In this document: positions 29,815-61,815 of the stretch, piece after piece
Layout: every line of letters begins with the position of its first letter
Numbering within the stretch: the stretch's first letter is position 1
From: Antedon mediterranea
Lineage: Eukaryota; Animalia; Echinodermata
Assembly (NCBI RefSeq): GCF_964355755.1
Contig: NC_092670.1
Location: 3,710,201 to 3,774,200, forward strand
Direction of reading: 5' to 3'
DNA: 64,000 nt
Notes under the pieces: generated by a model
Told to the model about the DNA's origin: nothing
Seen by the model: the letters and a program-made list of their open reading frames with translations, nothing else
Database searches by the model: none
Position numbers and translations under genes: made by a program

Positions 29815-30689
29815 AATAGATCGTACAATTGTTGTTTTCTGTGTAGTGTACTCTATATGCCTCACATGTTGCTACTGATGTGGTTTTTTGTTGTTGTTCG
29901 TCGAGCGTCCTCTCGAAAAGGGGGCGTGATCAAAGGTTCAAAATAGAGGGCGGCATACAACAACATTAAATATCTATCTTTCGTTCGAATTTAAACAAAA
30001 TTCTTTTAATGTCGATAATAAAGCATTTGAAAATTACGCCCTCTCCAAATAAACTTTAAAAGACACTTTATCATAATTAATAAATCTCCATTGCATTATT
30101 GAAGAATTGTGGAAAAACGTGTGGGCCTACGACTTTTAAATTGTGAGGAAGTTTGTGTAGGGCCTACTTATGATAGCTGTTACTGACAATATATATATAT
30201 ACAGTATATATTAAATACAATACTGTAATAGACTTGTTAAATCTTTAAATTTTAAATTAACATCACTGTGAATTAAATCCGACCTCACATGCTATGTGAC
30301 GCCATATTTCAATTTTTACCGAGCACCTCACCTAGCCTAGATTGACATTATGCCCTTTAGAAAAAAGAGTATTCTCGAATATCGAATGTTATCACTGCCT
30401 TAGTAGTTCATGTAGTGCTTAAAAATGTTTTTAAAATTAAAATTACCAACCTTCTCTTTAAAAACATACAATAAATAGATTTGATAGATCATTTAAAAAA
30501 AAAAATGTAATTGATCCAGTGGAAGATGAAATATCCCTCTTTTTTTGTGATATTTTGTTTTGTGAAAGCTAAGTTAGAATAAAATATCCGTAAAACAATA
30601 TATATAGTATTCGAGTTGAGAAACTGGAGCAACTTTATGTCACTATTGACGTTCCATATTACAACGCCCACTTTTGATTCTCAAACTAT

Positions 30690-41500: not shown

Positions 41501-42821
41501 AAAAGGTAATTATGTATTTCTAATTTGATAAGGTATGTAGGAGGGATCGTTGGAATTGAGTATTCCTTTGTTCAATTTAAAAATAAAATAATAATATTCA
41601 TTTGTAACAGAGAGCATGTCAATGTAGACATTCATTAATTGCATAATGAAATGCAATACAATCTCTATCAATTTTGGTGCCTATAATAAAGTAATACATA
41701 TTTTTTTTTCATACTAGAATCTTGCTGGTGAATCGTTACTAGTCGTTGGATTTGACATGGGGTCAATCCATCTGTTTTACTTCACTCAACCAATGACAAG
41801 CCTCTTTGCCACAATGTTCAAAGATGCTGAAGGCACTCAGAAGATTTGGACACAGGTGAGATCACATGATCTTGTTTGAAATTTCTGAATCCTTTTTGCA
41901 AAATTTTAGAGATTACTGTTTTATGGTTCTTTCATTGATCTTTAGGATTTACATCTCCATCAAAAGTTTGTGCGTCAAGTTGTGCTACCAAACATTCACA
42001 AGAACGAGATGGTGCGTAAAGTACGCTACATCCCAGAAAACGATTTCATTCTTTCGTCAAGCAGCAGCAACAAGACTTCGATGGTGATGATGGATATACA
42101 GGGCAAGAAGAAAACTTATGTTTTCAAATTGAGCAAGGTTGGTTGTAGGTTGAGTGAAGGGTCTTAGGCTAAGTAAAGAAGTGTCTTACTGCACTAAGTC
42201 TTGGTATTTTCTGGTGCGTTGGCCAGTTCCTTTTCATGCTGCCTTATCCTTTCAAGTTTTTTTCAACCAGATACTCTTTTACAGTTGAATAGACTGCAGG
42301 TTGTTTGGAATTTCAATCCAGGCCTTTTTTTAAAATCTAACCATTTATGGCTAGCGTGATTCTGGTTGAATAGGTTAGATGTAAAATGAAAAGAAAGGCT
42401 ATTACTGAAGATAAACTCTTGGGAATCATCTTTATCATACAGAAAAAAAAGTAAATTCAAATTCAAATAAATGCTATAAGATTTGCAAAAATAGCCTATG
42501 CCATGTAAAATATGAATACAATTTTTTTTGGTAAAACAAACACAATGTTAAAGTAAAGAAATAAAGCAAATAATGCCTTTATTTCATAGAATGACGATAT
42601 ACACTTCATTAAAAATGTTTTTCTTACAGGGCGTGGAATGTTTTGACTTCAACAAAACGTTAAACATGATCGCTACTGGAAGCATTGACCACTGTATACG
42701 TCTTTGGAACCCGTACGTAGAGGATAAACCAATTGCATTGCTGACAGGTCACATGATGTCCATTGTGGATGTAGTCATCCATGAACCATATCACCAGATA
42801 TTTAGTTATTCAAAAGATGGG
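32531..42821 (+). CDS. EF-hand + WD40 protein of the WDR49(CFAP337)/WDY/EFCAB8 family, 5' part (exons 32531-32545, 33393-33433, 39888-40146, 40508-40654, 40994-41282, 41459-41505, 41718-41855, 41946-42137, 42630-42821); remainder not in window
   Basis: In-frame splicing gives ...METLFAKVDTSADGYVDWNEFCTYM (EF-hand)...LAIASTGRDIRFWDI...GVECFDFNKTLNMIATGSIDHCIRLWNPY..PIALLTGHMMSIVDV (WD repeats). The last exon ends at a GTAAGT donor with no stop. The first two small exons are inferred from frame compatibility. Confidence 0.82.
33028..33350 (-). mobile_element. Full-length tRNA-headed SINE with Deu/Nin-like core domain
   Basis: Minus strand: GTGGCCGAGCGGTTAAG (A box), GGGTTCGAGGC (B box), core TCTTCTCGGATAAGGACTATAAACCGTAGGTCC...GAGTAGGGGGTTACCCCGGTGT resembling the AmnSINE/DeuSINE central domain, and a (TCAA)n tail. 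TAATAAT is duplicated on both flanks. Confidence 0.82.
33456..33578. mobile_element. Internally deleted copy of the MITE at 20573
   Basis: Shared acactatcaaactttatgtgac..atgtgatgt.cccatatatggacatgat..actaccatatttgggc..aaactagtt. Confidence 0.75.
34867..34944. promoter_or_regulatory. Two RFX X-box-like palindromes GTTGTCATGGAAAC (34867-34880, 34931-34944)
   Basis: Identical 14-mers matching the RFX consensus GTTRYCATGGNAAC, in an intron of a probable ciliary gene. Confidence 0.55.
37376..37389. promoter_or_regulatory. RFX X-box GTTGCCATGGAAAC
   Basis: Near-perfect consensus, upstream of a candidate alternative first exon. Confidence 0.6.
38072..38151 (+). CDS. Candidate alternative first coding exon of the WD40 gene (MHLQSRIMNRYQSFSSDSDSDSIDSF..)
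   Basis: ATG-initiated 80 nt ending in a consensus GTAAGT donor in phase 2, the phase required by the acceptor at 39888. Confidence 0.4.
39493..39712 (-). mobile_element. tRNA-derived SINE (core CCACTCAGCTATAAATGAGTACCTGG), best-preserved of three copies
   Basis: B-box-like CCGGGTTCAATTG on the minus strand followed by a conserved-SINE-like core. Relatives at 16625-16840 and 42180-42355. Confidence 0.7.
42180..42355 (-). mobile_element. Degraded copy of the same SINE family
   Basis: ggccagttcctttt.atgc.gcctt..tttcaaccag.tactc aligns with 39580-39650. Confidence 0.6.
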
Positions 42822-43130
42822 GTAAGTCATTATTTTTTCATTCTGCGTATACTAAGTTTGTTTGTTGTTAATTGGTAGCTAGTAAGTATTCAAAATTTAT
42901 TTTCCAATCTATTATATATGAGTAAGTTTTATGAAAATTTTATCAATTGATTTTTATTTCTATGTATATACATGGAGGACACTAATTTTAAAATCTGTCC
43001 TACGCAGAGCTTTAAGCTAATTTTAATGCATGAGAAATGTTGATAATAAAGGAGCTGCAACTCTGAGGTTTATAAACACAAGGAAGGAAACAATTATTTA
43101 TCCTGTAATTAACAGAAACTAATGATTCAA

Positions 43131-44540
43131 TTATTGGGAATCCAGAACAAAATAATGTGGAGGAGTTTCGTCATTATCAATGTTATCATCTCTTCTGTTC
43201 ATAACTTCATTTGTGCACCTCATTTTCTCAACCACAGTGCCAGACATAACATAGTCATTTTCAGCCTGTTGTTCTGCTGGTGTGTCATCAATTGTATAGT
43301 AAACATCTTCCTCAACAATGATTCCTGGAATGTCAGAAGTATCTTGGACCCTTGTGCCATTGTTCCTTTGATAACGCACAACATGTTGTGGTTTGTTGCA
43401 GCGTTTCTTCTTTAGTTGATAAAGTAACACAAGTACAACAATCATAAGTGTGATAGTACTTGTTGCCAGTGCCATTATGATTGTTCTATTGTTGTCACTT
43501 GCTGGATTGCATTTTTGGGATGTTGTTCGATATACCACTTTATTGTCAGTTGGTGTGATATTTTGGTCTTTTGGGTTGTTTTTCACATTGGTCGTTGCTT
43601 TAATACATTCAGTAGTGGATAAGATTTTGTTATCTTTGATTGTGAATTCAATCTCATCAGATCTGTTCAGAACCTCTGTACTCACCAGACACTTGGCAAT
43701 GTAATCACCAGCTGGTAAATTGTTGAAACATGTTTCATCTGTCTCTTGCTGGTAATCATTCTCTGCCATTACTTCTTCATTCAAACTCCAGTTGTAGATT
43801 TTCTTGCTACCAGATCCACCTGCTGCATAGCACTTGAAGCTATTCTGATTCACAGACATTTCAGACGTTTTATTTAACATCTTGACCTCCACCATTAATT
43901 GTGGGAGAACTTTTAATATCACAGTTTTGCACCAAGTTTCCCAACTGTTTGAATATGAAAGACAAGTGAAAAATATTGCTTCTCCGGAATAGAAACCCTT
44001 AATAGTCTGATTATAGGTTATATTATATGAACTATAAGACTGTGTGACATTGTACTTTCCTTGGATCCACCCAATTGTGACATCACATATGCGGTTATTT
44101 GGTACTATGATGATCTTACAAACAATTTGAACTTGCTTCCATTCTATAATGTTATCCAAACCTTCACAAGAAATGTGAATGTTATCCCCATCAGGTATTC
44201 TAAAATGGACATCATATGTAGGAACCAAATATTGTAACTTATCACCATCCTCACATGTGTATATTCCTTGTACTTGCTGTGCCTCAAAAGATATGAAAAG
44301 TGGACATCTAATTGTTAACTTTTTAAAGTAGTCTTTAAAGATAAGTAGCTTTTTCGAGTTGTCTACAGAGTACTTTGGAATAACCTGATATTGTTTATTT
44401 GCTGCTGGTAAAACTCTCACTGATTGCACAGAGGTGCTTGTGTAATAGTAAACATTATCAAATTCAACTAAACTTGCAGAAACTCCATTGGAAAATGGCA
44501 AGCACGCCAATACAAAGATCAAATACGTTTTAAAATTCAT
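43131..44540 (-). CDS. Ig-like single-pass receptor, copy 1 (ectodomain A + tail 1), ~469 aa, single coding exon
   Basis: First true ATG at 44540 gives signal peptide MNFKTYLIFVLACLPFSNGVSA. Ig-like motifs LTI..QGIYTC, VQIVC..IGW..FTC and FKC..YNW..GDYIAKC. TM segment IIMALATSTITLMIVVLVLLY followed by KKKR. Tail contains DVYYTI, NDYVM and PHYFVL. Confidence 0.85.
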   Translation of the reverse strand: MNFKTYLIFVLACLPFSNGVSASLVEFDNVYYYTSTSVQSVRVLPAANKQYQVIPKYSVDNSKKLLIFKDYFKKLTIRCPLFISFEAQQVQGIYTCEDGDKLQYLVPTYDVHFRIPDGDNIHISCEGLDNIIEWKQVQIVCKIIIVPNNRICDVTIGWIQGKYNVTQSYSSYNITYNQTIKGFYSGEAIFFTCLSYSNSWETWCKTVILKVLPQLMVEVKMLNKTSEMSVNQNSFKCYAAGGSGSKKIYNWSLNEEVMAENDYQQETDETCFNNLPAGDYIAKCLVSTEVLNRSDEIEFTIKDNKILSTTECIKATTNVKNNPKDQNITPTDNKVVYRTTSQKCNPASDNNRTIIMALATSTITLMIVVLVLLYQLKKKRCNKPQHVVRYQRNNGTRVQDTSDIPGIIVEEDVYYTIDDTPAEQQAENDYVMSGTVVEKMRCTNEVMNRRDDNIDNDETPPHYFVLDSQ

Positions 44541-46176
44541 GCTTCTTAGTGAAAATCTAAAATGGTCAACCAATGATTCAAGTGTTAAAACGTTTGGATG
44601 TGTAAAAGTGTTGGTTGATGATAAAATTTTTCTGAGATTATGCAATGGCTGTATTGAGGAAGTTGACTATACTATAATTATAGAATCTGAAAACTAAACT
44701 AAAATAAAAAATTGAGTTTTGTTTTTAGTTGGTCTATGTTTTTAATATTAGGTTTCTCACACTTAAATAGTACAATAATAAATATAATAAATGGGGTGAT
44801 TTTTACTGCCAATTTTCCTGAAAACTCATTTTGGAAGATTTACCAGTTATCAACTCAAGTAATAGACAATTAAAAATTTAAAAAATTATTAAATAAAAAA
44901 AAAAATTCTTGACAATCATTTAATCAATCCGAAATGTAAAATACATTACGCAATTTTCATAGAGTCATCGATAGGGATGTTAAAAATAAGAATTGTGTCG
45001 TGTTAGTTGATTATGATATTAAAAAGTACAATACAAAGCCAAAAGCAAAACAGTTTTTAACTTCAAGGGTGCCAATATAAAATTTTTATCATTGGAATGT
45101 TTGCATGGTGCAATCAATATCCCTAAGGTTGATCGAAAGAACATTGATCAAAACGTCAAAACAGTTCTTTTCAGCACTACATACGTGGTGTACTGCAAAC
45201 TTTATATTAATATAAGGTTTGTTTTCATAAAAAGTGAATTTTCCAGTTTTCCATCAAGGTCATTACAGAGTTTGAGACCAGATACAGATATAAAATAATG
45301 CGATCTTTTTAAGTGCAGCAAACAAAGTACAAATACTCAATAATAGATTAGTATACATGCATTTAATCATGCTCAAAAGTCTTAATATACAGTATTAACA
45401 ATTGATGTGGATAAGACTAGTGTGCTAACTGCAAATTGCCAAAAATAGTGATATTAAAATATTAAAGTATTTCAATTTGCAACAATGACCTTTGGGTGAG
45501 GTTACTAATTGAATAACATGGAGAATTTAAACACAGCAAAGAGAGAAACACTAATTTGCTCAGTAATATTACTGAAAATACTAGATGGAGCAGTAAATCC
45601 AAGAAAATCACATATTCTGATTTTAAATAATGTCTATTTACAATTGATATCTTTTTCAAAAACTCATTTCTCCCATTAGCATTTAGTTAGATATTTGGGA
45701 TGCTGAATGTAACAAGAACTTTGTTTAGATTTTGGAGAGGAGTTATGATTTAAACCCAAGAATTAATCTGTAGTTGTGTTTGTCTTCAGGTTTTTTTTTT
45801 AATCTGTCTAAGTTACTTTATATTTACAAATGATCAAGATTTTCTAGAGAAGGCCTTAACATTTATGCAAATTTGGTAATCATGCCTTATAACTACTTTA
45901 CATTATCATACAGAACCATTTTCTACAGTGGTGATTTACAAATTAATAAACTCTACAAAATGTTTTAAAATAATGTTTGCTACATTACTGTGTAAACTGT
46001 TATAAAAGTACTATTGTTTTTTTGTTGCTTAATCTTAAAAATGGAGACAATTTGGACATTTTCATTCATAAGTTTAATTATTAAAAACCTCACTTTCCAT
46101 TTCTTCTGTGATGTTATTCGGTGTAATTTTAAAAGATTGTTTAGCTTTTACTGATATAAGTTGTGAACATGTTTGA

Positions 46177-47469
46177 TTACTTGTCGACGGTATCTCCATC
46201 TTTGATTTCACAATACAATGCATCAATGCTTGTTTCTGGTTGTTGTTGTCTTCTAGATGTGTTTGCAATTGTTATACTGTAATTTTGTTGTTCCACTTTG
46301 GTATCTGCAACATCAGAAGTTTCGTAGACAGTATTTCTTTGATAAAACACTTCTGGTTGATGTTTGTTGTCATGTTTCCTGTTGTCATGTTTCCTTTTTA
46401 GTATGTAGAGAAACAAAATGAAGACAATAACCATCAGTGTCATAGTACTTGTTGCTAGAACCATTATGAGTATTTTATCACTGCTCCTTTTCTGTTTGTT
46501 GTTGATATCATTCACCTTGTTGTAGTTTTGGGAATTTGTCACTCTGTCTACTGACATGTCGACATCTTTAATTGTGAATTCTACCTCATCAGATCTGATC
46601 TGAACCTCAGCACTCACCAGACACTTGACAGTGTAATCAGCTGGTAAATTGTTAAAACATCTTTCATCTGTCTCTTGCTGGTAATCATTCTGTGTCACTC
46701 CTTCTCCATTCAAACTCCAGTTGTAGATTTTCTTGCTACCAGATCCACCTGCTGCATAGCACTTAAAGCAATTCTGATTCACAGACATTTCAGACGTTTC
46801 ATATAACCTCTTGACCTTCACCATTAATTGTGGGAGAACTTTTAATATCACAGTTTTGCACCTAGTTTCCCAACTGTTTGAATATGAAAGACAAATGAAA
46901 AATATTGCTTCTCCGGAATAGAAACCCTTAATAGTCTGATTATAGGTTATATTATATGAACTATAAGACTGTGTGACATTGTACTTTCCTTGGATCCACC
47001 CAATTGTGACATCACATATGCGGTCATTTGGTACTATGATGATCTTACAAACAATTTGAACTTGCTTCCATTCAATAATGTTATTCAAACCTTCACAAGA
47101 AATGTGAATGTTATCCCCTTCAGGTATTCTAAAATGGACATCATATGTAGGAACCAAATATTGTAACTTATCACCATCCTCACAGGTGTATATTCCTTGT
47201 ACTTGCTGTGCCTCAAAAGATATGAAAAGTGGACATCTAATTGTTAACTTTTTAAAGTAGTCTTTAAAGATAATTAGCTTTTTGAAGTTGTCTACAGAGT
47301 ACTTTGGAATAACCTGATATTGTTTATTTGCTGCTGGTAAAACTCTCACTGATTGCACAGAGGTGCTTGTGTAATAGTAAACATTATCAAATTCAACTAA
47401 ACTTGCAGAAACTCCATTGGAAAATGACAAGCACGCCAATACAAAGATCAAATACGTTTTAAAATTCAT
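46177..47469 (-). CDS. Ig-like single-pass receptor, copy 2 (ectodomain A + tail 2), ~430 aa
   Basis: Ectodomain nearly identical to copy 1. After EFTIK the stalk, TM and tail match copies 3, 4 and 6 (..ILIMVLATSTMTLMVIVFILFLYILKRK..TVYETS..QNYSITI..DALYCEI). Confidence 0.85.
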   Translation of the reverse strand: MNFKTYLIFVLACLSFSNGVSASLVEFDNVYYYTSTSVQSVRVLPAANKQYQVIPKYSVDNFKKLIIFKDYFKKLTIRCPLFISFEAQQVQGIYTCEDGDKLQYLVPTYDVHFRIPEGDNIHISCEGLNNIIEWKQVQIVCKIIIVPNDRICDVTIGWIQGKYNVTQSYSSYNITYNQTIKGFYSGEAIFFICLSYSNSWETRCKTVILKVLPQLMVKVKRLYETSEMSVNQNCFKCYAAGGSGSKKIYNWSLNGEGVTQNDYQQETDERCFNNLPADYTVKCLVSAEVQIRSDEVEFTIKDVDMSVDRVTNSQNYNKVNDINNKQKRSSDKILIMVLATSTMTLMVIVFILFLYILKRKHDNRKHDNKHQPEVFYQRNTVYETSDVADTKVEQQNYSITIANTSRRQQQPETSIDALYCEIKDGDTVDK

Positions 47470-49106
47470 GCTTCTTAGTGAAAATCTAAAATGGTCAACC
47501 AATGATTCAAGTGTAAAACGTTTGGATGTGTAAAAGTGTTGGTTGATGATAAAATTTTTCTGAGATTATGCAATGGCTGTATTGAGGAAGTTGACTATAC
47601 TATAATTATAGAATCTGAAAACTAAACTAAAATAAAAAATTGAGTTTTGTTTTTAGTTGGTCTATGTTTTTAATATTAGGATTCTCACACTTAAATAGTA
47701 CAATAATAAATATAATAAATGGGGTGATTTTTACTGCCAATTTTTCTTAAAACTCATTTTGGAAGATTTACCAGTTATCAACTCAAGTAATAGACAAATT
47801 AAAAATTAAAAAAATTATTAAATAAAAAAAAAAATTCTTGACAATCATTTAATCATCCGAAATGTAAAATACATTATGCAATTTTCATTAGAGTCATCGA
47901 TAGGGATGTTAAAAATAAGAATCGTGTCGTGTTAGTTGATTATGATATTAAAAAGTACAATACAAAGCCAAAAGCAAAACAGTTTTTAACTTCAAGGGTG
48001 CCAATATAACATTTTTATCATTGGAATGTTTGCATGGTGCAATCAATATCCCTAAGGTTGATCGAAAGTACATTGATCAAAACGTCAAAACAGTTCTTTT
48101 CTGCACTACATACGTGGTGTACTGCAAACTTTATATTAATATAAGGTTTGTTTTCATAAAAAGTGAATTTTTCAGTTTTCCATCAAGGTCATTACAGAGT
48201 TTGAGACCAGATACAGATATAAAATAATGCGATCTTTTTAAGTGCAGCAAACAAAGTACAAATACTCAATAATAGATTAGTATACATGCATTTAATCATG
48301 CTCAAAAGTCTTAATATACAGTATTAACAATTGATGTTGATAAGACTAGTGTGCTAACTGCAAATTGCCAAAAATAGTGATATTAAAATATTAAAGTATT
48401 TCAATTTCCAACAATGACCTTTGGGTGAGGTTACTAATTGAATAACATGGAGAATTTAAACACAGCAAAGAGAGAAACACTAATTTGCTCAGTAATATTA
48501 CTGAAAATACTAGATGGAGCAGTAAATCCAAGAAAATCACATATTCTGATTTTAAATAATGTCTATTTACAATTGATATCTTTTTCAAAAACTCATTTTT
48601 CCCATTAGCATTTAGTTATATATTTGGGATGCTGAATGTAACAAGAACTTTGTTTAGATTTTGGAGAGGAGCTATGATTTAAACCCAGGAATCAATCTGT
48701 AGTTGTGTTTGTCTTCAGGTTTTTTTTTTTAATCTGTCTAAGTTACTTTATATTTACAAATGGTCAAGATTTTCTAGAGAAGGCCTTAACATTTATGCAA
48801 ATTTGGTAATCATGCCTTATAACTACTTTACATTATCATACAGAACCATTTTCTACAGTGGTAATTTACAAATTAATAAACTCTACAAAATGTTTTAAAA
48901 TAATGTTTGCTACATTACTGTGTAAACTGTTATAAAAGTACTATTGTTTTTTTTTTGCTTAATCTTAAAAATGGAGACAATTTGGAAATTTTCATTCATA
49001 AGTTTAATTATTAAAAACCTCACTTTCCATTTCTTCTGTGATGTTATTCGGTGTAATTTTAAAAGATTGTTTAGCTTTTACTGATATAAGTTGTGAACAT
49101 GTTTGA

Positions 49107-50417
49107 TTACTTGTCGACGGTATCTCCATCTTTGATTTCACAATACAATGCATCAATGTTTGTTTCTAGTTGTTGTCTTTTAGATGTGTTTGCAATGGTT
49201 ATACTGTAGTTTTGTTGTTCCACTTTGGTATCTGCACCATCAGAAGTTTCGTAGACAGTATTTCTTTGATAAAACACTTCTGGATGATGTTTGTTGTCAT
49301 GTTTCCTGTTGTCATGTTTCCTGCTGTCATGTTTTCTTTTTAGTATGTAGAGAAACAAAATGAAGACAATAACCATCAGTGTGATAGTACTTGTTGCTAG
49401 AACCGTTATAATTATTTTATCACTGCTCCTTTTCTGTTTTTTATTGATATCATTCACCTTGTTGTAGTTTTGGGAAGTTGTCACTCTGTCTACTGACATG
49501 TCGACATCTTTAATTGTGAATTCTACCTCATCAGATCTGATCTGAACCTCAGCACTCACCAGACACTTGACAGTGTAATCACCAGCTGGTAAATTGTTAA
49601 AACATCTTTCATCTGTCTCTTGCTGGTAATCATTCTGTGTCATTCCTTCTCCATTCAAACTCCAGTTGTATATTTTCTTGCTACCAGATCCACCTGCTGC
49701 ATAGCACTTGAAGCAATTCTTATTCACAGAGTTTTCAGATGTTGCATATAACTTCTTGACCTCCACCATTAATTGTTGAAGAACTTTTAATATCACAGTT
49801 TTGCACCAAGTTTCCCAACTGTTTGATAATGAAAGACAAATGAAAAATATTGCTTCTCCAGAATAAAAACCATTAATAGTCTGATTATAGGTTATATTAT
49901 ATAAACTATAAGACTGTGTGACATTGTACTTTCCTTGGATCCACCCAATTGTGACATCACATATGCGGTCATTTGGTACTATGATGATCTTACAAACAAT
50001 TTGAACTTGCTTCCATTCTATAATGTTATTCAAACCTTCACAAGATATGTGAATGTTATCCCTTTCATGTATTCTAAAATGCACATCAGATGAAGGAACC
50101 AAATATTGTAACTTATCACCATCCTCACATGTGTATATTCCTTGTACTTGCTGTGCCTCAAAAGATATGAAAAGTGGACATCTAATTGTTAACTTTTTAA
50201 AGTAGTCTTTAAAGATAAGTAGCTTTTTGAAGTTGTCTATTACAGAGTACTTTGGAATAACCGGATATTGTTTATTTGCTGCTGGGAAAACTCTCACTGA
50301 TTGCACAGAGGTGCTTGTGTAATAGTAAACATTATCAAATTCAACTAAACTTGCAGAAACTCCATTGGAAAATGACAAGCACGCCAATACAAAGATCAAA
50401 TACGTTTTAAAATTCAT
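49107..50417 (-). CDS. Ig-like single-pass receptor, copy 3 (ectodomain A + tail 2), ~436 aa
   Basis: Intact ORF from MNFKTY; paralog of copy 2 with scattered substitutions and one extra RKHDN unit. Confidence 0.85.
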   Translation of the reverse strand: MNFKTYLIFVLACLSFSNGVSASLVEFDNVYYYTSTSVQSVRVFPAANKQYPVIPKYSVIDNFKKLLIFKDYFKKLTIRCPLFISFEAQQVQGIYTCEDGDKLQYLVPSSDVHFRIHERDNIHISCEGLNNIIEWKQVQIVCKIIIVPNDRICDVTIGWIQGKYNVTQSYSLYNITYNQTINGFYSGEAIFFICLSLSNSWETWCKTVILKVLQQLMVEVKKLYATSENSVNKNCFKCYAAGGSGSKKIYNWSLNGEGMTQNDYQQETDERCFNNLPAGDYTVKCLVSAEVQIRSDEVEFTIKDVDMSVDRVTTSQNYNKVNDINKKQKRSSDKIIITVLATSTITLMVIVFILFLYILKRKHDSRKHDNRKHDNKHHPEVFYQRNTVYETSDGADTKVEQQNYSITIANTSKRQQLETNIDALYCEIKDGDTVDK

Positions 50418-51009
50418 GCTTCTTAGTGAAAATCTAAAATGGTCAACCAATGATGCAAGTGTTAAAATGTTTGGATGTGTAAAAGTGTTGGTTCATGATC
50501 AAATTTTTCTGAGATTATGCAATGGCTGTGTTGAGGAAGTTGACTGTTATATAGAATCTGAAAACTAAACTAAATTTAAAAATTTAGTTTTGTTTTTAGT
50601 TGGTCTATGTTTTTAATATTAGGTTTCTCACACTTAAATAGTACAATAGTAAATAAATAATAAATGGTTCTATTTTTACTGCCAATTTTTCTGAAAACTC
50701 ATTTCGGAAGATTTACCAGTTATCAACTCAAGTAAATTTAAACAATTAAAAATTTAAAAAAGTATTAAATAAAAAAAATAAAAATTCTTGACAATCATTT
50801 AATCAATCAAAATGTAAAATACATTATGCAATTTTCATAAATAGAGTCATCGATAGGGATCTTAAAGATAAGATTCTTGTTGTGTTAGTTGATTATGATA
50901 TTAAAAAGTACACTACAAAGCCAAAAACATAACAGTCTAACCTCAAGGGCACCAATATAAGATTTTGTTTTGTTTGAATGTTTGCATGGTGCAATAAATA
51001 TGTCCTGAG

Positions 51010-51977
51010 CAGGGGTGGACCCAGGGGGCAACACCCTTAATTTCATACTAAATGTTTTTTTCTGCCACTAAGTTAAAATTTAGATTCCATTTCATCATAT
51101 TATGTATTAACCATTAACGTTATAGAAGAAGTCTAGGGTTGGAAATTATTAAGACTATAGGCTTATGTAAATTGACAGACTGCAGTGTAAAATAACCAGC
51201 CATCAAAGATACAGTGCATAATTATTTACCGGCGGTCAGCGTTTTTGTTGTTTGTTGACTGTTTGGATTGCTTGTGTGCATGAAGGTACGAAAGGCCGCT
51301 ACGTGGTAAACCCCGTCATATGGGTCGTTGATTTCTCCATAATCATTGCATTTTGCCGGGGATTCCCCATAATTTAAATATTTCCGTAGTACCATATTTA
51401 TCTTCATTTCCCTACGTCCGTAATATTTGGGCAAATTTCCGTAATAATTACGGATGTTCCGAACTTTGAAATAACAGCGTTTAATTGATTCTTTCTGCAA
51501 ATTTCGATCATATTTTCTTTTCTGGAGTGTGGTTGTACAGTTTATAGTGGATAAATGAAAATGAATTTGGAAATTGTGGGTTTACTGATTTATTTAGCAT
51601 TTATTTCAAAATAATACAATTTAACGTTTTGCTCAATATTTTTATAGCAGCAGCTTCACATTTTTTTTCTAAATTGTTTTAATTATTAATTGATAATAAA
51701 TAATATATTAATTGATTTTAATTGCTAGAATTTATTACATTACCGGAAGTACCTTCGTCGGGCACCTCCTCTGAAATTCGCATTGAATGCAAAAAATGTT
51801 ATCCTTTGTTTGTCGATTGTGTTTTACCGGCGGAAAAAACAGGAGTGATACGATCTGTTTGCTACTGTAGCCCGATTTTTGTGAATTTTATGTGCGAGAT
51901 TACCATTTCCGGCCATCTAGGCGTGTCATTTAACAAAAATGGGCAAACCCCTTAAAATAGTCCTGCGACCGCCCCTG
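51010..51977. mobile_element. Non-autonomous hAT-like element with 5-bp TSD (CTGAG)
   Basis: Termini CAGGGGTGGACCCAGG / CCTGCGACCGCCCCTG with CTGAG on both sides. The empty site (atatccctaaggttgat) is visible in the paralogous spacers near 45120 and 48050. Confidence 0.85.
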
Positions 51978-52887
51978 CTGAGGTTGATTGAAGCACATTG
52001 ATCAAAACGTCAAAAAACTCAACAGTCCTTTTCAGCACTACATATGTGGTTTTTATAAAACGTTAACAAAGAAAGTGAATTTTTAAGTTTTCCATCAAGA
52101 TCATTACAGAGTTTGGGACCAGATACAGAAATAAAATATTGCGATCTTTTTTAAGTGCAGCAAAAAAAAAAGTACAATTACTCAATACTAGATTAGTATA
52201 CAAGCATTCATTCATGTTCAAAAGTCTTGATATATTAACAATTGATGTTGAAAGACTAGTGTGCTAACTGTAAATTGCCAATTTGCAACAATGACCTTTG
52301 GGTGAGGTTACTAATTGAACAACATGGAGCATTTAAACACAGCAAAGAGAGAAACACTAATTTGCTCAGTAATATTACTGAAAATACTAGATGGAGCAGT
52401 AAATCCAAGAAAATCACATATTCTGATCTTAAATAATGACTATTTACAAATGATATCTTTTTTTAAAAACTTACTTCTCCCATTAGCATTTAGTTATATA
52501 TTTGGGATGCTGAATGTAACAAGGAGAACTTTGTTTAAATGTTGGCGAGGAGCTATGATTTAAACCCAAGAATCAATCTTTAGTTTTGTACATCTTCAGG
52601 TTTTTTTGTGTTAATCTTTCAAAGTTACTTTATATTTACAAATGGTAAAGATTTTCTAGAGAAGGCCTAAAAAATGTATGCAAATGTGGTAATCATGCCT
52701 ACACTACTTTGCATTATCATACATAACCATTTTCTACATGGTAATTTACAAATTAATAAACTCTACAAAATGTTTTACAAATAATGTTTACACTGTTTAA
52801 ACTGTTATAAAAGTACTTTAATTTTTAAAATTGGAGACAATTCGTTCAGTGTTTCTTTATAAATTATATATATTCATGTTTTTATGT

Positions 52888-54298
52888 TTAATTAGTAAAA
52901 ACCTCACAGTTTTCCATTTCTTCTGTGATATTGTTATTCGGTGTAATTTTAAGATATTGTTTAGCTTCTTGTACTGCTTTTACTGATATAAGTTGTGTAC
53001 TTGTTTGTTTACTTGTTGAAGGTTTCTCCTTCTTGTTGATTTCACAATACAATGCATCAATGTTTGTTTCTGGTTGTTGTATTTTAGATGTGTTTGCAAT
53101 TGTTATACTGTAGTTTTGTTGTTCCACTTTGGTTTCTGCAACATCAGAAGTTTCATAGTCAATGTTTCTTTGATAAAGCACTTGTTGATGTTTGTTTTCA
53201 TGTTTCCTGCTTTCATGTTTCCTTTTTAGTATGTAGAGAAACAGAATGAAGACAACAACCATCAGTGTTATAGTACTTGTTGCTAGAACTAATATGAGTA
53301 TTTTATCACTGCTCCTTTTCTGTTTGATGTTGATATCGTTCACCTTGTTGTAGTTCTGGGAAGTTGTCACTCTGTCTACTGACATGCCAACATCTTTAAT
53401 TGTGAATTCTACCTCATCAGATCCTTTCTGAACCTCTGCAGTCACCAGACATTTGACAGTGTAATCACCAGCTGGTAAATTGTTAAAACATCTTCCATCT
53501 GTCTCTTGCTGGTCATCATTCTCTGTCATTCCTACTTCATTCAAACTCCAGTTGTAGATTTTCTTGTGACTAGATCCACCTGCTGCATAGCACTTAAAGT
53601 AATTCAGATTCACTGCCGAGACTTCAGACGTTACATATAACCTCTTGACCTCCACCATTGATTGTGGGTGAACCTTCAATATCAATGTGTAACACCAAGT
53701 TTTAAAATTGTTGTTTTTTGATAATCTTGAAATACAGCAGAAAAATATACCTTCTCCAGAATAAAAACCATAAATCTTATAGTTTATACTGCCATTGTTC
53801 GTATTTAAAATATAATTATAAGATTGTGTACTTTTGTAAGTTCCTTGTATCCAACCAATTGTGACTTCATTTTTAAAATCATTGCTGATATTACACTTAA
53901 TTTGTACTTCCTCTCCTTCAACAATGTCTTTCAAACCTTCACATGAAACCTGTTTAAAGTTATTTGTCCGTGCAACACCAGATGAAGCAACCAAATACTG
54001 TAGCTTGTCACTATCCTCACAGGTGTATATTCCTTGTACTTCCTGTGCAGCAAAAGATATGAAAAGTGGACATCTAATTGTAATTGACTTCTCTATCAAA
54101 TAGTGTTTAAAGATATACTGAGTATCATTGTTTAGGACAGTAAAATCTTCTCCCGTGGTATTCTTTATTTGCAGGTACAATTGTCACAGATTGTTTAAAG
54201 TTTGATGAGTAATAATAATACATATTATGCTCAAGCAAACTTTCTGAAGCTCCTAAGTTGATCAATACAAAGATGATGTTACAGTAAATTATATTCAT
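52888..54298 (-). pseudogene. Ig-like receptor copy 4 (ectodomain B + long tail 2), frameshifted
   Basis: ATG at 54298 gives MNIIYCNIIFVLINLGASESLLEHNMYYYYSSNFKQ. An 11-nt deletion near 54157 relative to copy 6 (AGTTGTTTCTA missing) shifts the frame to an early TGA. The downstream ~420 codons are still open. Confidence 0.8.
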
Positions 54299-55404
54299 CT
54301 TTAAAATGTACTTTGCTTCAACAGTTTGTGAAATTCTAATGCACTCATTGACTATTGTTTGTACTTATGTTTGATTAATAGAAACTTAATTGATAGATTT
54401 AACATGATTCTTTATTTCTGTGACTATATTTAGAAAACAAACAAACCTTGTATTTGCAAAGATGCTTTGATTAAGTTGTACAAAGTTTATATAGTTTTGG
54501 TTTTCATATGCGATATTGAAATCTAGATTTAGCATGAGTCAGCGTTCAACACACTTTCTGTCAATAGCAACTGTTTTTTATTTTATTCAGGTATAAAAAT
54601 ATACAAAAAATAGCCAAGGCTAAAAGTAATGCATCTACAAAGGTTTAAAACAAAATTAGGACTATGAAAATATAAACTTTAAAGAGTATTTACAATGATT
54701 TGAAATTGAAAACATAAAAAACTAAAAATAGTGCCTATTGTGTGTCATATAGAATATATATATACAGTATACTATAGCATAGGTGAATTCACGGGACCCA
54801 CATTTTTTGGTATGATGACATTATTAAAATCAAACTTGAAGATAACAATTTCGAAAGATAATGATTTGAGCAAAAAGATATAAGATTTGGAAGAAAATTG
54901 GACATGTAGAAGTGTGGTACACATTCTTTTAAATTTGTATAACTTTGACAAAAGAGATGAAAAAAACTACTTTTTAAATTCAACTGGCCATATGATAATG
55001 TTACAACATCCGATATGCTTAATTTGTATATGGATTCATATCTATATTTCAGCAGCTTTTATAGTGAGTTATAAACATCTAGTTCACCTTTAATTCTGAA
55101 GAGCAGTAAGATATTCAAATATATGGTGTAGGTGAAATTATCCGACATCAATTTGTTCAAATTTTTAGCTGTGATTACATCGTCAAAATGAAAACAACTA
55201 ATGAGAAAGATAATTGATTGAGCTAGCACATATTAGAATTTGAGGGAAAATCGGGCACAAATAAGTTTTAAGCTAATGTTAATGAATGAGAAATGTTGAT
55301 AATAAAAGAGCTGCAACTCCGAGGCCAGTAAACACATAGAAGGAAAACATTATTTATGCCTTAGGTGAAAAAAATACTGTAATTACCAGAAACGTATGAT
55401 TCAA

Positions 55405-56805
55405 TTACTGGGAATCCAGAACAAAATAATGTGGAATTTCGTCATTATCAATGTTATCATCTCTTCTGTTCATAACTTCATTTGTGCACCTCATTTTCTC
55501 AACCACTGTGCCAGACATAACATAGTCATTTTCAGCCTGTTGTTCTGCTGGTGTGTCATCAATTGTATAGTAAACATCTTCCTCTTCAATGGTTCCTGGA
55601 ATGTCAGAAGTCTCTTGGACCCTTGTGCCATTGTTCCTTTGATAACACATGACATGTTGTGGTGTGTTGCAGCGTTTCCTCTTGAGTTGATAAAGTAACA
55701 GAAGTACAGCAATAATCAGTATAACAGTAATTGTTGCCCGTGCCATTGTGGTTGTTTTACTGTTGTTATCACTAGCTGGATTGCAATTTTTTGGTGTTGT
55801 CTGAAACACTTTGTTAGTTGGTGTGATATTTGGGTCTTGGTTGTTTTTCACATCTGCTGTTGCTATACACTCAGCAGTGGTACAGATATGTTTACCTTTG
55901 ATTGTGAATTCAATCTCATCAGATCTACTCTGAACCTCTGTACTCACCAGACACTTGACAGTGTAATCACCAGCCGGTAAATTGTTAAAACATCTTTCAT
56001 GTGTCTCTTGCTGGTAATCATTCTGTGTCATTCCTTCTTCATTCAAACTCCAGTTGTAGATTGTCTTGCTCCCAGATCCACCTGCTGCATAGCACTTGAA
56101 GCAATTCTGATTCACAGACATTTCAGACGTTTCATATAACCTCTTGACCTTCACCATTAATTGTGGGAGAACTTTTAATATCACAGTTTTGCACCTAGTT
56201 TCCCAACTGTTTGAATATGAAAGACAAATGAAAAATATTGCTTCTCCGGAATAGAAACCCTTAATAGTCTGATTATAGGTTATATTATATGAACTATAAG
56301 ACTGTGTGACATTGTACTTTCCTTGGATCCACCCAATTGTGACATCACATATGCGGTTATTTGGTACTATGATGATCTTACAAACAATTTGAACTTGCTT
56401 CCATTCTATAATGTTATTCAAACCTTCACAAGAAATGTGAATGTTATCCCCATCAGGTATTCTAAAATGGACATCATATGTGGGAACCAAATATTGTAAC
56501 TTATCATCATCCTCACATGTGTATATTCCTTGTACTTGCTGTGCATCAAAAGATATGAAAATTGGACATCTAATTGTTAACTTTTTAAAGTAGTCTTTAA
56601 AGATAAGTAACTTTTTGGAGTTGTCTTTTACAGAGTACTTAGGAATAACCTGATATTGTTTATTTGCTGCTGGTAAAACTCTCACTGATGGCACAGAGGT
56701 GCTTGTGTAATAGTAAACATTATCAAATTCAACTAAACTTGCAGAAACTCCATTGGAAAATGACAAGCACGCCAATACAAAGATCAAATACGTTTTAAAA
56801 TTCAT
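55405..56805 (-). CDS. Ig-like single-pass receptor, copy 5 (ectodomain A + tail 1), ~466 aa
   Basis: Intact ORF with the same signal peptide. Tail nearly identical to copy 1 (..DVYYTIDD..NDYVMS..IPHYFVLDSQ); stalk and TM diverged. An extra in-frame ATG lies at 56892. Confidence 0.85.
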   Translation of the reverse strand: MNFKTYLIFVLACLSFSNGVSASLVEFDNVYYYTSTSVPSVRVLPAANKQYQVIPKYSVKDNSKKLLIFKDYFKKLTIRCPIFISFDAQQVQGIYTCEDDDKLQYLVPTYDVHFRIPDGDNIHISCEGLNNIIEWKQVQIVCKIIIVPNNRICDVTIGWIQGKYNVTQSYSSYNITYNQTIKGFYSGEAIFFICLSYSNSWETRCKTVILKVLPQLMVKVKRLYETSEMSVNQNCFKCYAAGGSGSKTIYNWSLNEEGMTQNDYQQETHERCFNNLPAGDYTVKCLVSTEVQSRSDEIEFTIKGKHICTTAECIATADVKNNQDPNITPTNKVFQTTPKNCNPASDNNSKTTTMARATITVILIIAVLLLLYQLKRKRCNTPQHVMCYQRNNGTRVQETSDIPGTIEEEDVYYTIDDTPAEQQAENDYVMSGTVVEKMRCTNEVMNRRDDNIDNDEIPHYFVLDSQ

Positions 56806-57392
56806 GCTTCTTAGTGAAAATCTAAAATGGTCAACCAATGATTCAAGTGTTAAAACGTTTGGATGTGTAAAAGTGTTGGTTGATGATAACATTTTTCTGA
56901 GATTATGCAATGGCTGTGTTGAGGAAGTTAACTGTTATATAGAATCTGAAAACTAAACTAAAATTAAAAATTGAGTTTCGTTTTTAGTTGGTCTATGTTT
57001 TTAATAGGTTCTCACACTTAAATAGTACAATAATAAATAAATAATAAATGGTTCTATTTTTACTGTCAATTTTTCTGAAAACTCATTTCGGAAGATTTAC
57101 CAGTTATCAACTCAAGTAATTTAAACAATTAAAAATTAAAAAAAGTATTAAATAAAAAAATAAAAAATTCTTGACAATCATTTAATCAATCAAAATGTAA
57201 AATACATTATGCAATTTTCATAAATAGAGTCATCGATAGGGATCTTAAAGATAAGAATCTTGTTGTGTTAGTTGATTATGATATTAAAAAGTACACTACA
57301 AAGCCAAAAACATAACAGTCTAACCTCAAGGGCACCAATATAAGATTTTGTTTCGTTTAAATGTTTGCATGGTGCAATAAATATGTCCTGAG

Positions 57393-58413
57393 CAGGGGTG
57401 GACCCAGGGGGCAACACCCTTAATTTCATACTAAATGTTTTTTTCTGCCACTAAGTTAAAATTTAGATTCCATTTCATCATATTATGTATTAACCATTAA
57501 CGTTATAGAAGTCTAGGGTTGGAAATTATTAAGACTATAGGCTTATGTAAATTGACAGACTGCAGTGTAAAATAACCAGCCATCAAAGATACAGTGCATA
57601 ATTACTGTATTTACCGGCGGTCAGCGTTTTTGTTGTTTGTTGACTGTTTGGATTGCTTGTGTGCATGAAGGTACGAAAGGCCACTACGTGGTAAACCCCG
57701 TCATATGGGTCGTTGATTTCTCCATAATCATTGCATTTTGCCGGGGATTCCCCATAATTTAAATATTTCCCTAGTACCATATTTATCTTCATTTCCCTAC
57801 GTCCGTAATATTTGGGCAAATTTCCGTAATAATTACGGACGTTCCGAACTTTGAAATAACAGCGTTTAATTGCTTCTTTCTGCAAATTTCGATCATATTT
57901 TCTTTTCTGGAGTGTGGTTGTACAGTTTATAGTGGATAAATGAAAATGAATTTTGGAAATTGTGGGTTTACTGATTTATTTAGAATTTATTTCAAAATAA
58001 TACAATTTAACATTTTGATCAATATCTTTATAGCAGCAGCTTCACATTTTTTTCTAAATTGTTTTTTTTTAAAAATTAATTGATAATAAATAATATTATT
58101 AATTGATTTTAATTGCTAGAATTTATTACATTACCGGAAGTACCTTCGTCGGACACCTCCTCTGACATTCGCATTGAACGCAAAAAATGTTATCCTTTGT
58201 TTGTCGATTGTGTTTTACCGGCGGAAAAAACAGCCGTGATACGATCTGTTTGCTACTGTAGCCCAATTTATTGTGAATTTTATGTGCGAGATTACCATTT
58301 CGGCCATCTAGGCGTGTCATTTAACAAAAATGCCCTCGCCACAGGCCCCAGTATCTACAACCCTGTGAGGACTCTTGGGCAACCCCCTTAAAATAGTCCT
58401 GCGACCGCCCCTG
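57393..58413. mobile_element. Second copy of the hAT-like element at the paralogous site
   Basis: Same termini, same CTGAG TSD and same flanks as 51010-51977, so it was duplicated along with its host segment. Confidence 0.85.
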
Positions 58414-59355
58414 CTGAGGTTGATTGAAGCACATTGATCAAAACGTCAAAAAACTCAACAGTCCTTTTCAGCACTACATATGTGGTGTACCCCAAACTTT
58501 ATATTAATATAAGGTTTGTTTTTATAAAAAGTTAACAAAGAAAGTGAATTTTTAAGTTTTCCATCAAGATCATTACAAAGTTTGGGACCAGATACAGAAA
58601 TAAAATATTGCGATCATTTTTAAGTGCAGCAAAAAAAAATACAATTACTCAATACTAGATTAGTATACAAGCATTTATTCATGTTCAAAAGTCTTGATAT
58701 ATTAACAATTGATGTTGAAAGACTAGTGTGCTAACTGTAAATTGCGAATTTGCAACAATGACCTTTGGGTGAGGTTACTAATTGAACAACATGGAGCATT
58801 TAAACACAGCAAAGAGAGAAACACTAATTTGCTCAGTAATATTACTGAAAATACTAGATGGAGCAGTAAATCCAAGAAAATCACATATTCTGATCTTAAA
58901 TAATGACTATTTACAAATGATATCTTTTTTAAAAAACTTACTTCTCCCATTAGCATTTAGTTATATATTTTGGATGCTGAATGTAACAAGGAGAACTTTG
59001 TTTAAATTTTGGCGAGGAGCTATGATTTAAACCCAAGAATCAATCTTTAGTTTTGTACATCTTCAGGTTTTTTTGTGTTAATCTTTCAAAGTTACTTTAT
59101 ATTTACAAATGGTAAAGATTTTCTAGAGAAGGCCTAAAAAATGTATGCAAATGTGGTAATCATGCCTACACTACTTTGCATTATCATACATAACCATTTT
59201 CTACATGGTAATTTACAAATTAATAAACTCTACAAAATGTTTTAAAAATAATGTTTACACTGTTTAAACTGTTATAAAAGTACTTTAATTTTTAAAATTA
59301 GAGACAATTCGTTCAGTGTTTCTTTATAAATTATATATATTCATGTTTTTATGTT

Positions 59356-61110
59356 TAATTAGTAAAAATCTCACAGTTTTCCATTTCTTCTGTGATAGTG
59401 TTATTCTGTGTAATTTTAAGAGATTGTTGAGCTTCTTGTACTGCTTTTACTGATATAAGTTGTGTACTTGTTTATTTACTTGTTGAAGGTTTCTCCTTTT
59501 TGATTTCACAATATAATGCATCAATGTTTGTTTCTGGTTGTTGTCTTTTAGATGTGTTTGCAATTGTTATACTGTAGTTTTGTTGTTCCACTTTGGTCTC
59601 TGCAACATCAGAAGTTCCATAGTCAATGTTTCTTTGATAAAGCACTTGTTGATGTTTGTTGTCATGTTTCCTGCTGTCATGTTTCCTTTTTAGTATGTAG
59701 AGAAACAAAATGAAGACAATAACCATCAATGTAATAGTACTTGTTGCTAGAACCATTATAATTATTTTATCACTGCTCCTTTTCTGTTTGTTGTTGATAT
59801 CATTTACTGTGTTGTAGTTTGGGAAAGTTGTCACTTTGTCTACTACATCTTTAATTGTGAATTCTACCTCAACAAATCCTTTCTGAATCTCTGTACTCAC
59901 CAGACATTTGACAGTGTAATCACCAGCTGGTAAATTGTTAAAACATCTTTCGTCTGTCTCTTGCTGGTCATCATTCTCTGTCATTCTTTTTTCATTCAAA
60001 CTCCAGTTGTAAATTTTCTTGTGACTAGATCCACCTGCTGCATAGCACTTAAAGCAATTTAGATTCACTGTCGAGACTTCAGACGTTACATATAACCTCT
60101 TGACCTCCACCATTAATTGTGGGTGAACCTTCAATATCAATTGTAACACCAAGTTTAAAAATTGTTGTTTTTTGATAATCTTGAAATACAGCAGAAAAAT
60201 ATACCTTCTCCAGAATAAAAACCATAAATCTTATAGTTTATACTGCCATTGTTCGTATCTAAAATATAATTATAAGACTGTGTACTTTTGTAAGTTCCTT
60301 GTATCCAACCAATTGTGACTTCATTTTTAAAATCATTGCTGATATTACACTTAATTTGTACTTCCTCTCCTTCAACAATGTCTTTCAAACCTTCACATGA
60401 AACCTGTTTAAAGTTATTTGTCCGTGCAACACCAGATGAAGCAACCAAATACTGTAGCTTGTCACTATCCTCACAGGTGTATATTCCTTGTACTTCCTGT
60501 GCAGCAAAAGATATGAAAAGTGGACATCTAATTGTAATTGACTTTTCTGATGTAAGATGCATTAGGCATTTCTCTCCCCTAGCAGAATCAGTCCATTTCA
60601 CCCGGGTTTTTGAAAAAATCCGGGTAATAAATCTTGGTCTGTTTTAAACAATTTACGAGTTCTGATTGTTTATCTTGACACACATGAAAGGCCAGCTGGA
60701 GTGTGACAGACACTTCACTACAGAAATTGCTGAAAACCACATAGGAATTTTCATGAGCTGTCCATGTGACCTTGTTGTAAATGACCTAATAGTACCCTTG
60801 GGTTGTAATTGATGGGCAGTTAATATAATCAAATTAAAATTGTGTGTTTTATGGGCTGATAATCTTGACAGACCTGTGGACCATTTCTGCTAAGGGAGAG
60901 TTTTGCCTCATATGTGTACTGAGTATTATTATTTAGGACAGTAAAATCTTCTCCAGTAGAAACAACTTGGTATTCTTTATTTGCAGGTACAATTGTCAGA
61001 GACTGTTTAAAGTTTGACGAGTAATAATAATACATATTATGCTCAAGCAAACTTTCTGAAGCTCCTAAGTTGATCATTACAAAGATGATATTACAGTAAA
61101 TTAAATTCAT
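59356..61110 (-). pseudogene. Ig-like receptor copy 6 (ectodomain B + tail 2), disrupted
   Basis: ATG at 61110 (MNLIYCNIIFVMINLGASES). Lesions: ~365-bp insertion at ~60549-60913, nonsense TAA plus 1-nt deletion near 60143-60157, and a stop in the tail at 59472. Confidence 0.85.
60563..60909. mobile_element. MITE inserted in receptor copy 6
   Basis: Imperfect TIRs AGGCATTTCTCTCCCCTAGCAGAATCAGTCCA / TGGACCATTTCTGCTAAGGGAGAGTTTTGCCT. Absent from copy 4. No clean TSD. Confidence 0.7.
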
Positions 61111-61124
61111 CTTCAAAATTACTC

Positions 61125-61815
61125 TAGTAGCTAGATCAACTTTCGTATGCACTTCGAGGTCCAGAGAATTTGACTTCAGAAATTGGTTTAGGATGGTCAA
61201 ACAATCATTTTTGGCTTGGTTACACATTTTGAAAATGTGGCGAAAGGTCAAAAGGTCAGGGTGAAAGGTCATAAGACCACACACCAATATGTCCTTAAAT
61301 CTCAACAACCACTGGTCACAGCAAAGTAATTTTGGTCTCAAATTGATCAGAAGGTATACATTTATATTCAGTCTAATGGGACATTTTACTAAAAAATGAC
61401 CGGAAATGCCATTTCTGACCTTTGACCCACACCTCAGGGCATGTATGTATCTCCGTAACTACTGATCGTAGACACTTAAATTTGGTCTTAAATTGTTTGA
61501 AATAAATATTTATTATTTGTAGCACATTTTTAAAAATGTTACAAAAGGTCAAAGGGTCAAGGTCAAAGGTTATATGAACAAATAAAAATAGATACTTGTA
61601 TCTCGGCAACCACTCGTCGCAGCAAGCCAATTTTAGTCTCAAAATGTTCAGAAGGCATGTTTTCATATTCAATCTAATGGGACATTTTAGTCAAAAATTA
61701 TCAGAAATGCCATTTCTGACCTTTGACCCACATATCATGGCATCTTCATATCTCTGTAAGTACTGGTTGTAGAAACTTAAATTTGGTATCAAATTGTTCG
61801 AAATATACATATTTA
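61125..61815. mobile_element. DNA-transposon-like arm with ~300-bp tandem subrepeats rich in AAGGTCA/TGACCTT
   Basis: Begins where homology to the copy-4 upstream sequence is lost, about 15 bp before the copy-6 ATG. Units start at ~61223 and ~61523. Confidence 0.6.

Follow-up and report, generated by a model that had tools for sequence, protein, structure and literature searches.

The 64,000-nucleotide stretch of the genome of the feather star (crinoid) Antedon mediterranea studied here (NC_092670.1, forward strand, 3,710,201-3,774,200; hereafter the window, whose own positions are used throughout) raises the question of what an array of six related genes, predicted to encode membrane proteins with immunoglobulin (Ig)-like domains and lying antisense within an intron of another gene, might be for. 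The array, at 43131-61110, consists of six minus-strand copies, labelled A to F, spaced about 3 kb apart. A sequence-only reading of this DNA had described four intact open reading frames (ORFs) and two pseudogenes, and this is borne out by the coordinates, ORFs and lesions reported below and in Table 1. The single-exon layout of the genes, their nesting in a host intron, the mosaic composition of their heads and tails, and the existence of further genomic members all go beyond what that reading had observed. The answer favoured here, at a probability of roughly 55%, is that the array represents a tandem family of single-exon, Ig-like membrane proteins whose heads and tails have been exchanged via the third extracellular domain, and which are likely to be paired immune-type recognition receptors. 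The anatomy of the array and the exchange at domain 3 can themselves be stated with high confidence.

Mosaic structure of the array

Each copy can be divided into a head (the upstream region, signal peptide and domains 1 and 2), a third domain, and a tail module (the stalk, transmembrane (TM) helix, tail and 3' flank). Heads are of two types, alpha (copies A, B, C, E) and beta (D, F), which are 68-69% identical at the nucleotide level in domain 2. The tail modules likewise fall into two types, x (A, E) and y (B, C, D, F), with a nucleotide identity between types of 49-53% in the tail itself (49% for C and E). Domain 3, by contrast, is 87-96% identical at the nucleotide level in all 15 pairs of copies. 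Copies A and B, for instance, share 98% of nucleotides over domains 1 and 2, and 50% in the tail. Three combinations are present, alpha-x, alpha-y and beta-y, such that the array in the order of transcription reads F (beta-y), E (alpha-x), D (beta-y), C (alpha-y), B (alpha-y) and A (alpha-x).

Synonymous divergence (dS) between alpha and beta copies falls from 0.84-0.92 in domain 2 to 0.07-0.13 in domain 3, a contrast with Fisher P values from 2e-7 to 2e-6 across four pairs, which have a common history and are therefore not independent. The low dS in domain 3 argues that its similarity between copies reflects exchange of DNA, and not only constraint on the protein. MaxChi placed breakpoints at 43921 and 43631-43633 in the coordinates of copy A, which are the two borders of domain 3, with none of 500 permutations as extreme in any of the five comparisons made. 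Large blocks of self-similarity also begin at the border between domain 3 and the stalk, at 43632, 46564, about 49491 and 55881.

The simplest history that would generate this arrangement starts from an ancestral pair of genes, one beta-y and one alpha-x, mispaired at domain 3, the sole long stretch over which they are similar. Unequal crossing-over would then have produced the alpha-y chimeras B and C and altered the copy number, with D and F being broken later. An insertion resembling a miniature inverted-repeat transposable element (MITE) is found in the F-E and D-C spacers and is absent from the C-B and B-A spacers, where empty sites lie near 48049 and 45120; this distribution fits the proposed mispairing and orders the events. 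The spacer element itself is about 1 kb in length, non-coding and bounded by CAGGGG...CCCCTG termini.

Copies A, B, C and E are each a single continuous ORF from signal peptide to stop, corresponding to one coding exon; the frame of copy E stays open further upstream, to an ATG at 56892. These ORFs are not chance occurrences, as 100 shuffles of the bases of the array region yielded stop-free runs of 167 codons at most, against 430-469 in the intact copies. All 12 indels between intact copies in three pairwise comparisons preserve the frame, against 11 of 53 in the flanks, a test that is partly circular because the intact copies were the ones chosen. As read in the assembly sequence, copy D carries a single lesion, an 11-bp deletion relative to F in domain 1 (near 54156), while copy F has an in-frame stop together with the loss of 1 bp at the end of domain 2 (near 60145-60157), a second stop in the tail at 59472, and a MITE-like insertion of about 370 bp (about 60546-60915) with imperfect terminal inverted repeats. 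Interpretation of this last insertion as an intron was rejected, given these terminal repeats and the finding that the GT-AG pairs examined by eye break the frame. A TTTTAG sequence 15 bases upstream of the ATG in A, B, C and E (44541-44570) could be the acceptor of an intron in the 5' untranslated region.

Protein architecture and fold

The proteins encoded by the intact genes have a hydrophobic stretch at the N-terminus. The extracellular part that follows, of about 280 residues, forms three units and leads through a stalk rich in Ser and Thr to a single TM helix, a group of basic residues, and a 73-93-residue tail bearing four or five tyrosines; the signal peptide and TM helix were called from hydropathy. 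Of the architecture given in the sequence-only reading, the signal peptide (as the hydrophobic stretch) and the TM helix with its basic segment therefore hold, and the Cys/Trp pattern attributed to three domains is restricted to domains 2 and 3. At the outer end of the TM helix (55690-55750), the Leu of copy A corresponds to an Arg in copy E (MARATITV), a difference that may be drift; activating receptors of vertebrates pair with adaptors through a TM Arg.

Domains 2 and 3 retain a B-strand Cys, a C-strand Trp and an F-strand Cys in all copies and in both RefSeq homologues described below. AlphaFold2, applied to these two domains with nine sequences, predicts two beta sandwiches (predicted local distance difference test score, pLDDT, 65.1; predicted template modelling score 0.53). 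A Foldseek search with this model places Ig domains of MDGA1 and CD22 on top (E about 2e-4, template modelling score about 0.4), and in VIA-align a match to ICAM-5 spans both domains (Z 8.7, root-mean-square deviation 3.8 over 158 residues), the best matches being macroglobulin, transglutaminase, RbmA and PKD sandwiches (Z 9-10.6, deviation 2.3-2.8) that cover about 90 residues of domain 2. All Foldseek and VIA-align matches are Ig-like sandwiches. Sequence searches of the PDB returned nothing significant; antibody V domains align on the G..V.I.C...W pattern of domain 2 with a best E of 0.02. In the ESM Atlas, the ectodomain of copy A scores 0.90, with features pointing to I, V and C2 sets, and a full-length homologue scores 0.93 at best (190 of 256 features, with Ig families in all ten matches listed), against a baseline in which 4-10 of every 100 shuffled proteins score 0.9. 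Taken as predictions, these results support well, with moderate confidence, an Ig-like fold for domains 2 and 3. As to the type of sandwich (V, I, C1 or C2 set, or an Fn3, PKD or macroglobulin type), the Atlas and VIA-align point in different directions.

Domain 1 differs in its conserved residues. It has two Cys and, in seven of the eight sequences tested, the E-F motif LxIx7GxYxC, with no Trp, no B-strand Cys and hence no canonical B-F disulfide. In this it recalls the first domains of the CD2/SLAM and CEACAM proteins, which lack the disulfide. The E-F motif is the one feature that suggests Ig membership for domain 1, such that the proposal of Ig-like domains stands for domains 2 and 3, on the AlphaFold2 and Foldseek results and the Cys/Trp pattern, and for domain 1 extends to that motif.

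The tyrosine motifs YYTI, YFVL and YCEI, which had been listed together as features of each copy, are all present and are divided between the tail types: YYTI and YFVL occur only in A and E, and YCEI only in B, C, D and F. Tail x is homologous to tail y (45% identity over 85 residues), with EEDVYYTI aligning to EQQNYSITI, and the distal motif of tail y is DALYCEI. For the Botryllus FcoR proteins, EDDVYAIL has been given as an example of a hemITAM, a form of the immunoreceptor tyrosine-based activation motif (ITAM) with the consensus [ED][ED][ED]xYxxL (PMC12582321); EEDVYYTI departs from this only in having I for L. A hemITAM-like motif appears in 0.2% of shuffled A tails, a frequency to be read in light of the pattern having been picked after it was seen. 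The end of the long tail of copy D (PSTSK...EVFTN, 52888-53060) aligns with the tail of XP_071950092.1, a homologue whose C-terminus, IPYYMEF, resembles the IPHYFVL of tail x. Judging from these alignments, a single longer tail may have been the ancestor of both types.

Genomic setting and size of the family

The gene that contains the array, a CFAP337-like cilia gene, is confirmed as an echinoderm gene by protein match, the peptide of the queried exon being 100% identical to XP_071952599.1 of A. mediterranea. Mapping of exons found none for residues 440-1174 in the window. As the exons reach residue 438, a splice donor follows and the remaining exons are outside the window, the array lies antisense within a single CFAP337-like intron, the closure of which beyond 64000 is taken from the RefSeq model.

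Table 1. Features of the window, with positions counted from its first nucleotide
Feature	Position	Strand	Description
Copy A	43131..44540	-	Intact, 469 residues; head alpha, tail x (EEDVYYTI, HYFVL)
Domain 3 of copy A	43632..43921	-	Homogenised exchange segment; equivalent in every copy
Copy B	46177..47469	-	Intact, 430 residues; head alpha, tail y (DALYCEI); chimera
Copy C	49107..50417	-	Intact, 436 residues; head alpha, tail y; chimera
MITE-like insertion	51010..51977		D-to-C spacer; terminal inverted repeats, 5-bp target duplication
Copy D	52888..54298	-	Pseudogene; head beta, long tail y
Copy E	55405..56805	-	Intact, 466 residues; head alpha, tail x
Second MITE-like copy	57393..58413		F-to-E spacer
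Copy F	59355..61110	-	Pseudogene; head beta, tail y
Host, CFAP337-like (WDR49-type EF-hand/WD40)	33390..42821	+	Exons for residues 3-438 of 1174
Host intron	42822..64000	+	GTAAGT donor at 42822; >21 kb; end beyond window; contains whole array
FBF1-like gene	about 4000-11400	+	Pfam FBF1, E 1e-10
Sphingosine kinase gene	19416-29871	-	Ordinary gene

Several repeats were noted in the remainder of the window. Seven near-perfect 79-bp tandem repeats lie in an intron of the sphingosine kinase gene (21845-22398), and large inverted-repeat elements composed of units of 301 bp and about 160 bp, found at 61223-64000 and 12410-16179, are probably non-autonomous DNA transposons. An Rfam scan of the window gave no match.

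Searches for relatives of the array indicate a family of narrow distribution. A word-indexed protein search with copy A returned 1917 candidates, none of them related. A profile search of 1.84 billion representatives gave seven matches at E<=0.001, of which three are true homologues: XP_071950092.1, an uncharacterised A. mediterranea protein of 499 residues with the same architecture and 34% identity over the ectodomain; XP_071957072.1, a partial, uncharacterised protein of 249 residues from another contig of the same species, 40-59% identical per domain; and an unnamed fragment (P0048). The first two are automatic gene models without function and with a different tail, and the six array copies are not among them. 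The other four matches (bacterial SdrD repeats, a carp multi-Ig protein, a Toxoplasma repeat protein and a Nematostella zinc finger) were dropped as inflated by repeats; the carp C2 domains resemble domain 3 by eye, and hhalign gives them a probability of 3%. Scans of metagenomes and viruses found no related locus, and a viral origin for these intronless genes was rejected, the viral fold search having returned only generic Ig and Fn3 matches at 8-15% identity. The profile search and the homologues thus uphold the earlier suggestion of a lineage-specific family with duplications and pseudogenes, and with no recognised housekeeping ortholog.

The extent of the family was studied using contigs of four sequencing runs from two organisms (organism A and organism B) placed on 41930-44780; those of run X5 continue through the host intron and were treated as DNA. 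At position 43669, in domain 3, 27, 24, 30 and 32 distinct contigs are found in the four runs, and the summed depth over domain 3 is roughly 40-80 times that of host exons in both organisms, figures that do not represent copy number; contigs do not separate alleles from paralogues. The loose ends of contigs at the border of domain 3 and the stalk translate, by hand, into open stalk-like peptides that differ among contigs, and all four runs contain further variants absent from the window. Hence the family probably comprises tens of members. In run X1, one contig is identical to the stalk and TM region of copy A (depth 28.5), and another has the length of copy E and its five diagnostic letters (depth 59.6). 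A further X1 contig, over 43291-43707, differs from A at 43 of 417 positions at a depth of 34, near that of the A contig. An allelic relation to A would imply a stalk polymorphism of about 10%; a hemizygous paralogue is an equally good interpretation.

Function, rival explanations and known receptor systems

One consequence of the mosaicism is that near-identical heads carry either a tail with EEDVYYTI or a tail with DALYCEI, which is a layout of paired receptors. The array combines linked genes, near-identical ectodomains, differing tails and sequence exchange, and the comparison with paired receptors is consequently stronger than on the evidence of the sequence-only reading. Domains 1 and 2 would bind a ligand on a microbe, parasite or non-self cell, and a Src-type kinase would phosphorylate the tail tyrosines. 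A Syk-type kinase would be drawn to tail x by the acidic EEDVYYTI, and a phosphatase or adaptor to tail y by DALYCEI, such that a single binding site would feed two outputs. Hypothetically, then, x would be activating and y inhibitory or modulating.

A number of observations weigh against this reading. None of the six tails contains a canonical ITIM (immunoreceptor tyrosine-based inhibitory motif; [SIVL]xYxx[IVL]), immunoreceptor tyrosine-based switch motif or ITAM (Yxx[LI]x6-12Yxx[LI]); DALYCEI carries an Ala at position -2; YxxL/I/V sequences are no more frequent than in shuffled tails (P 0.19-0.44) and may be sorting signals; and the divergent full-length homologue XP_071950092.1 (P0047) has neither tail motif. 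Regarding the fold, no Pfam Ig family was matched, domain 3 instead matching Y_Y_Y (best E 4e-5) and a PKD-like model, both below the Pfam cut-off; VIA-align ranks macroglobulin, transglutaminase and PKD sandwiches above chains of the Ig superfamily (IgSF); and the AlphaFold2 prediction for the whole ectodomain, from five sequences, has a pLDDT of 29.7. None of the eight array ORFs was found by exact look-up in the protein collection. To our knowledge crinoids are not colonial, and fusion-type allorecognition would thus have no obvious role in them. As domain averages, no dN/dS ratio is convincingly above 1, and the alpha heads, 94-98% identical to A in domain 1, are not hypervariable within the cluster. 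The fast evolution typical of the loci to which this one had been likened is accordingly not seen in dN/dS by domain, there being no domain-wide positive selection and almost no variation in domain 1 among alpha copies. What survives of the original proposal is a lineage-specific family of Ig-like type I proteins with duplications and pseudogenes; its immune or allorecognition role is hypothetical, the tails having no canonical ITIM or ITAM and the domain averages showing no positive selection.

A rival reading is a role in adhesion or cell identity outside immunity, in which the proteins would serve tissue, neuronal or gamete recognition by binding to themselves or to a partner, with tails for trafficking or cytoskeletal coupling. 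This explanation is unlikely, if the best of those opposed to an immune function. Three Ig domains in a type I protein with a Ser/Thr-rich stalk resemble proteins of the nectin, CAR, ICAM and IgLON kind, which figure among the fold matches, and canonical ITIMs and ITAMs are missing, as just described. Free-spawning echinoderms have fast-evolving gamete proteins. Adhesion molecules are usually conserved and low in copy number, however, and a family with probably tens of copies, pseudogenes and shuffling of heads and tails does not conform to this, nor do the tails share a conserved C-terminus of the PDZ type. A precedent for adhesive binding is provided by Hydractinia Alr1 and Alr2, whose binding is homophilic (PMC9546547).

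It is rather improbable that the array represents mostly neutral turnover of a retro-derived family, in which chimeras and copies would be by-products of unequal crossing-over at domain 3 and most copies silent or redundant. Such turnover would be in keeping with the single coding exon, the two broken copies out of six, the absence of the ORFs from annotation, the MITE insertions within and between copies, and the dN/dS of recent copies, with values of 0.3-0.9 for the ectodomain and, in domain 3, close to 1 (0.2-1.3, from small counts). Against it, four ORFs have remained open across the frame-preserving indels described above (the test being in part circular), and the 34%-identical full-length paralogue retains the architecture. 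In organism B an E-like tail-x sequence is retained at a depth close to that of host exons, as for a single-copy gene. The comparison of alpha and beta heads over domains 1 and 2, with synonymous and non-synonymous differences at proportions of 0.46 and 0.27 respectively (P 4e-4), also indicates past purifying selection on the heads. Least probable by far is a partial assembly artefact, in which the F-E block would be an uncollapsed haplotype of D-C/A: 49491-54094 and 55881-60548 are 94% identical, as is conceivable for haplotypes of a polymorphic marine animal, but the separate X1 contigs speak against a single A/E locus having been assembled twice, their depths correspond to roughly one and two doses of a haplotype (X1 possibly being the source sample, and so not independent of the assembled animal), the C and E tails and the D and F lesions differ, and extra variants occur in every run.

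The reading as paired recognition receptors can be compared with known systems. In vertebrates these include KIR and LILR. Siglec-5/14, Siglec-11/16 and PILR are similarly linked genes with near-identical ectodomains, kept alike by exchange, and with different tails; their inhibitory members have canonical ITIMs and their activating members short tails and DAP12 or FcR-gamma partners (PMC13358205). In the crinoid array, by contrast, both tail types are long and homologous, and opposite signalling is a hypothesis. Among invertebrate deuterostomes, the FF/FcoR proteins of Botryllus schlosseri are also a lineage-specific IgSF family of tens of clustered genes, the ectodomains and intracellular regions of which are mixed by intergenic recombination, and the hemITAM EDDVYAIL is very close to the crinoid EEDVYYTI (PMC12582321). 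FcoR genes differ in their canonical ITIMs, Sushi domains and spliced structure, with motifs swapped by alleles and alternative splicing; the crinoid genes have one coding exon and no canonical ITIM, swap via domain 3, and are not known to have an allorecognition phenotype.

The Alr proteins of Hydractinia are likewise clustered, three-domain, single-pass proteins with non-canonical Ig domains missed by sequence searches, accompanied by pseudogenes and bearing tyrosine motifs in divergent tails; they differ in having one exon per domain, where the crinoid copies are single ORFs, and in their canonical ITAMs and ITIMs, and their allelic polymorphism and homophilic binding have been demonstrated (PMC9546547), whereas the crinoid family is known from sequence. 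Neither Alr nor FF/FcoR proteins appear among the seven profile matches at E<=0.001, which suggests that the array is not homologous to them and is instead of the same kind, a lineage-specific Ig receptor family. Within the echinoderms, the SpTransformer (Sp185/333) proteins of sea urchins are not Ig-type single-pass receptors and have no homology to the array. Their genes number about 50, are small, clustered and about 3 kb apart, encode the mature protein in one exon and form mosaics by recombination or conversion, and they differ in having two exons and flanking microsatellites (PMC3342357).

A more ambitious interpretation, which is tentative, is that crinoids have independently evolved a large paired-receptor system of tens of intronless Ig-receptor genes, with domain 3 acting as a recombination hinge through which heads would be re-coupled to activating (hemITAM-like) or inhibitory tails by germline crossing-over, without introns or splicing. 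Ig receptor families with tyrosine-motif tails have been described among invertebrates in a cnidarian and a tunicate. A term search of a review of invertebrate IgSF proteins finds echinoderms once, in a list of phyla (PMC11999971), and literature searches showed no crinoid family of this type. Immune surveys based on annotation would overlook this array, none of whose copies is in the protein collection. With one coding exon per gene, the shuffling of heads and tails is unusually easy to trace and test. Graft rejection in echinoderms is described as innate (PMC3342357). If the crinoid genes are expressed in immune cells, they would be candidate molecules for this response, and would represent a further independent origin of paired activating and inhibitory Ig receptors, in the earliest-branching living class of echinoderms.

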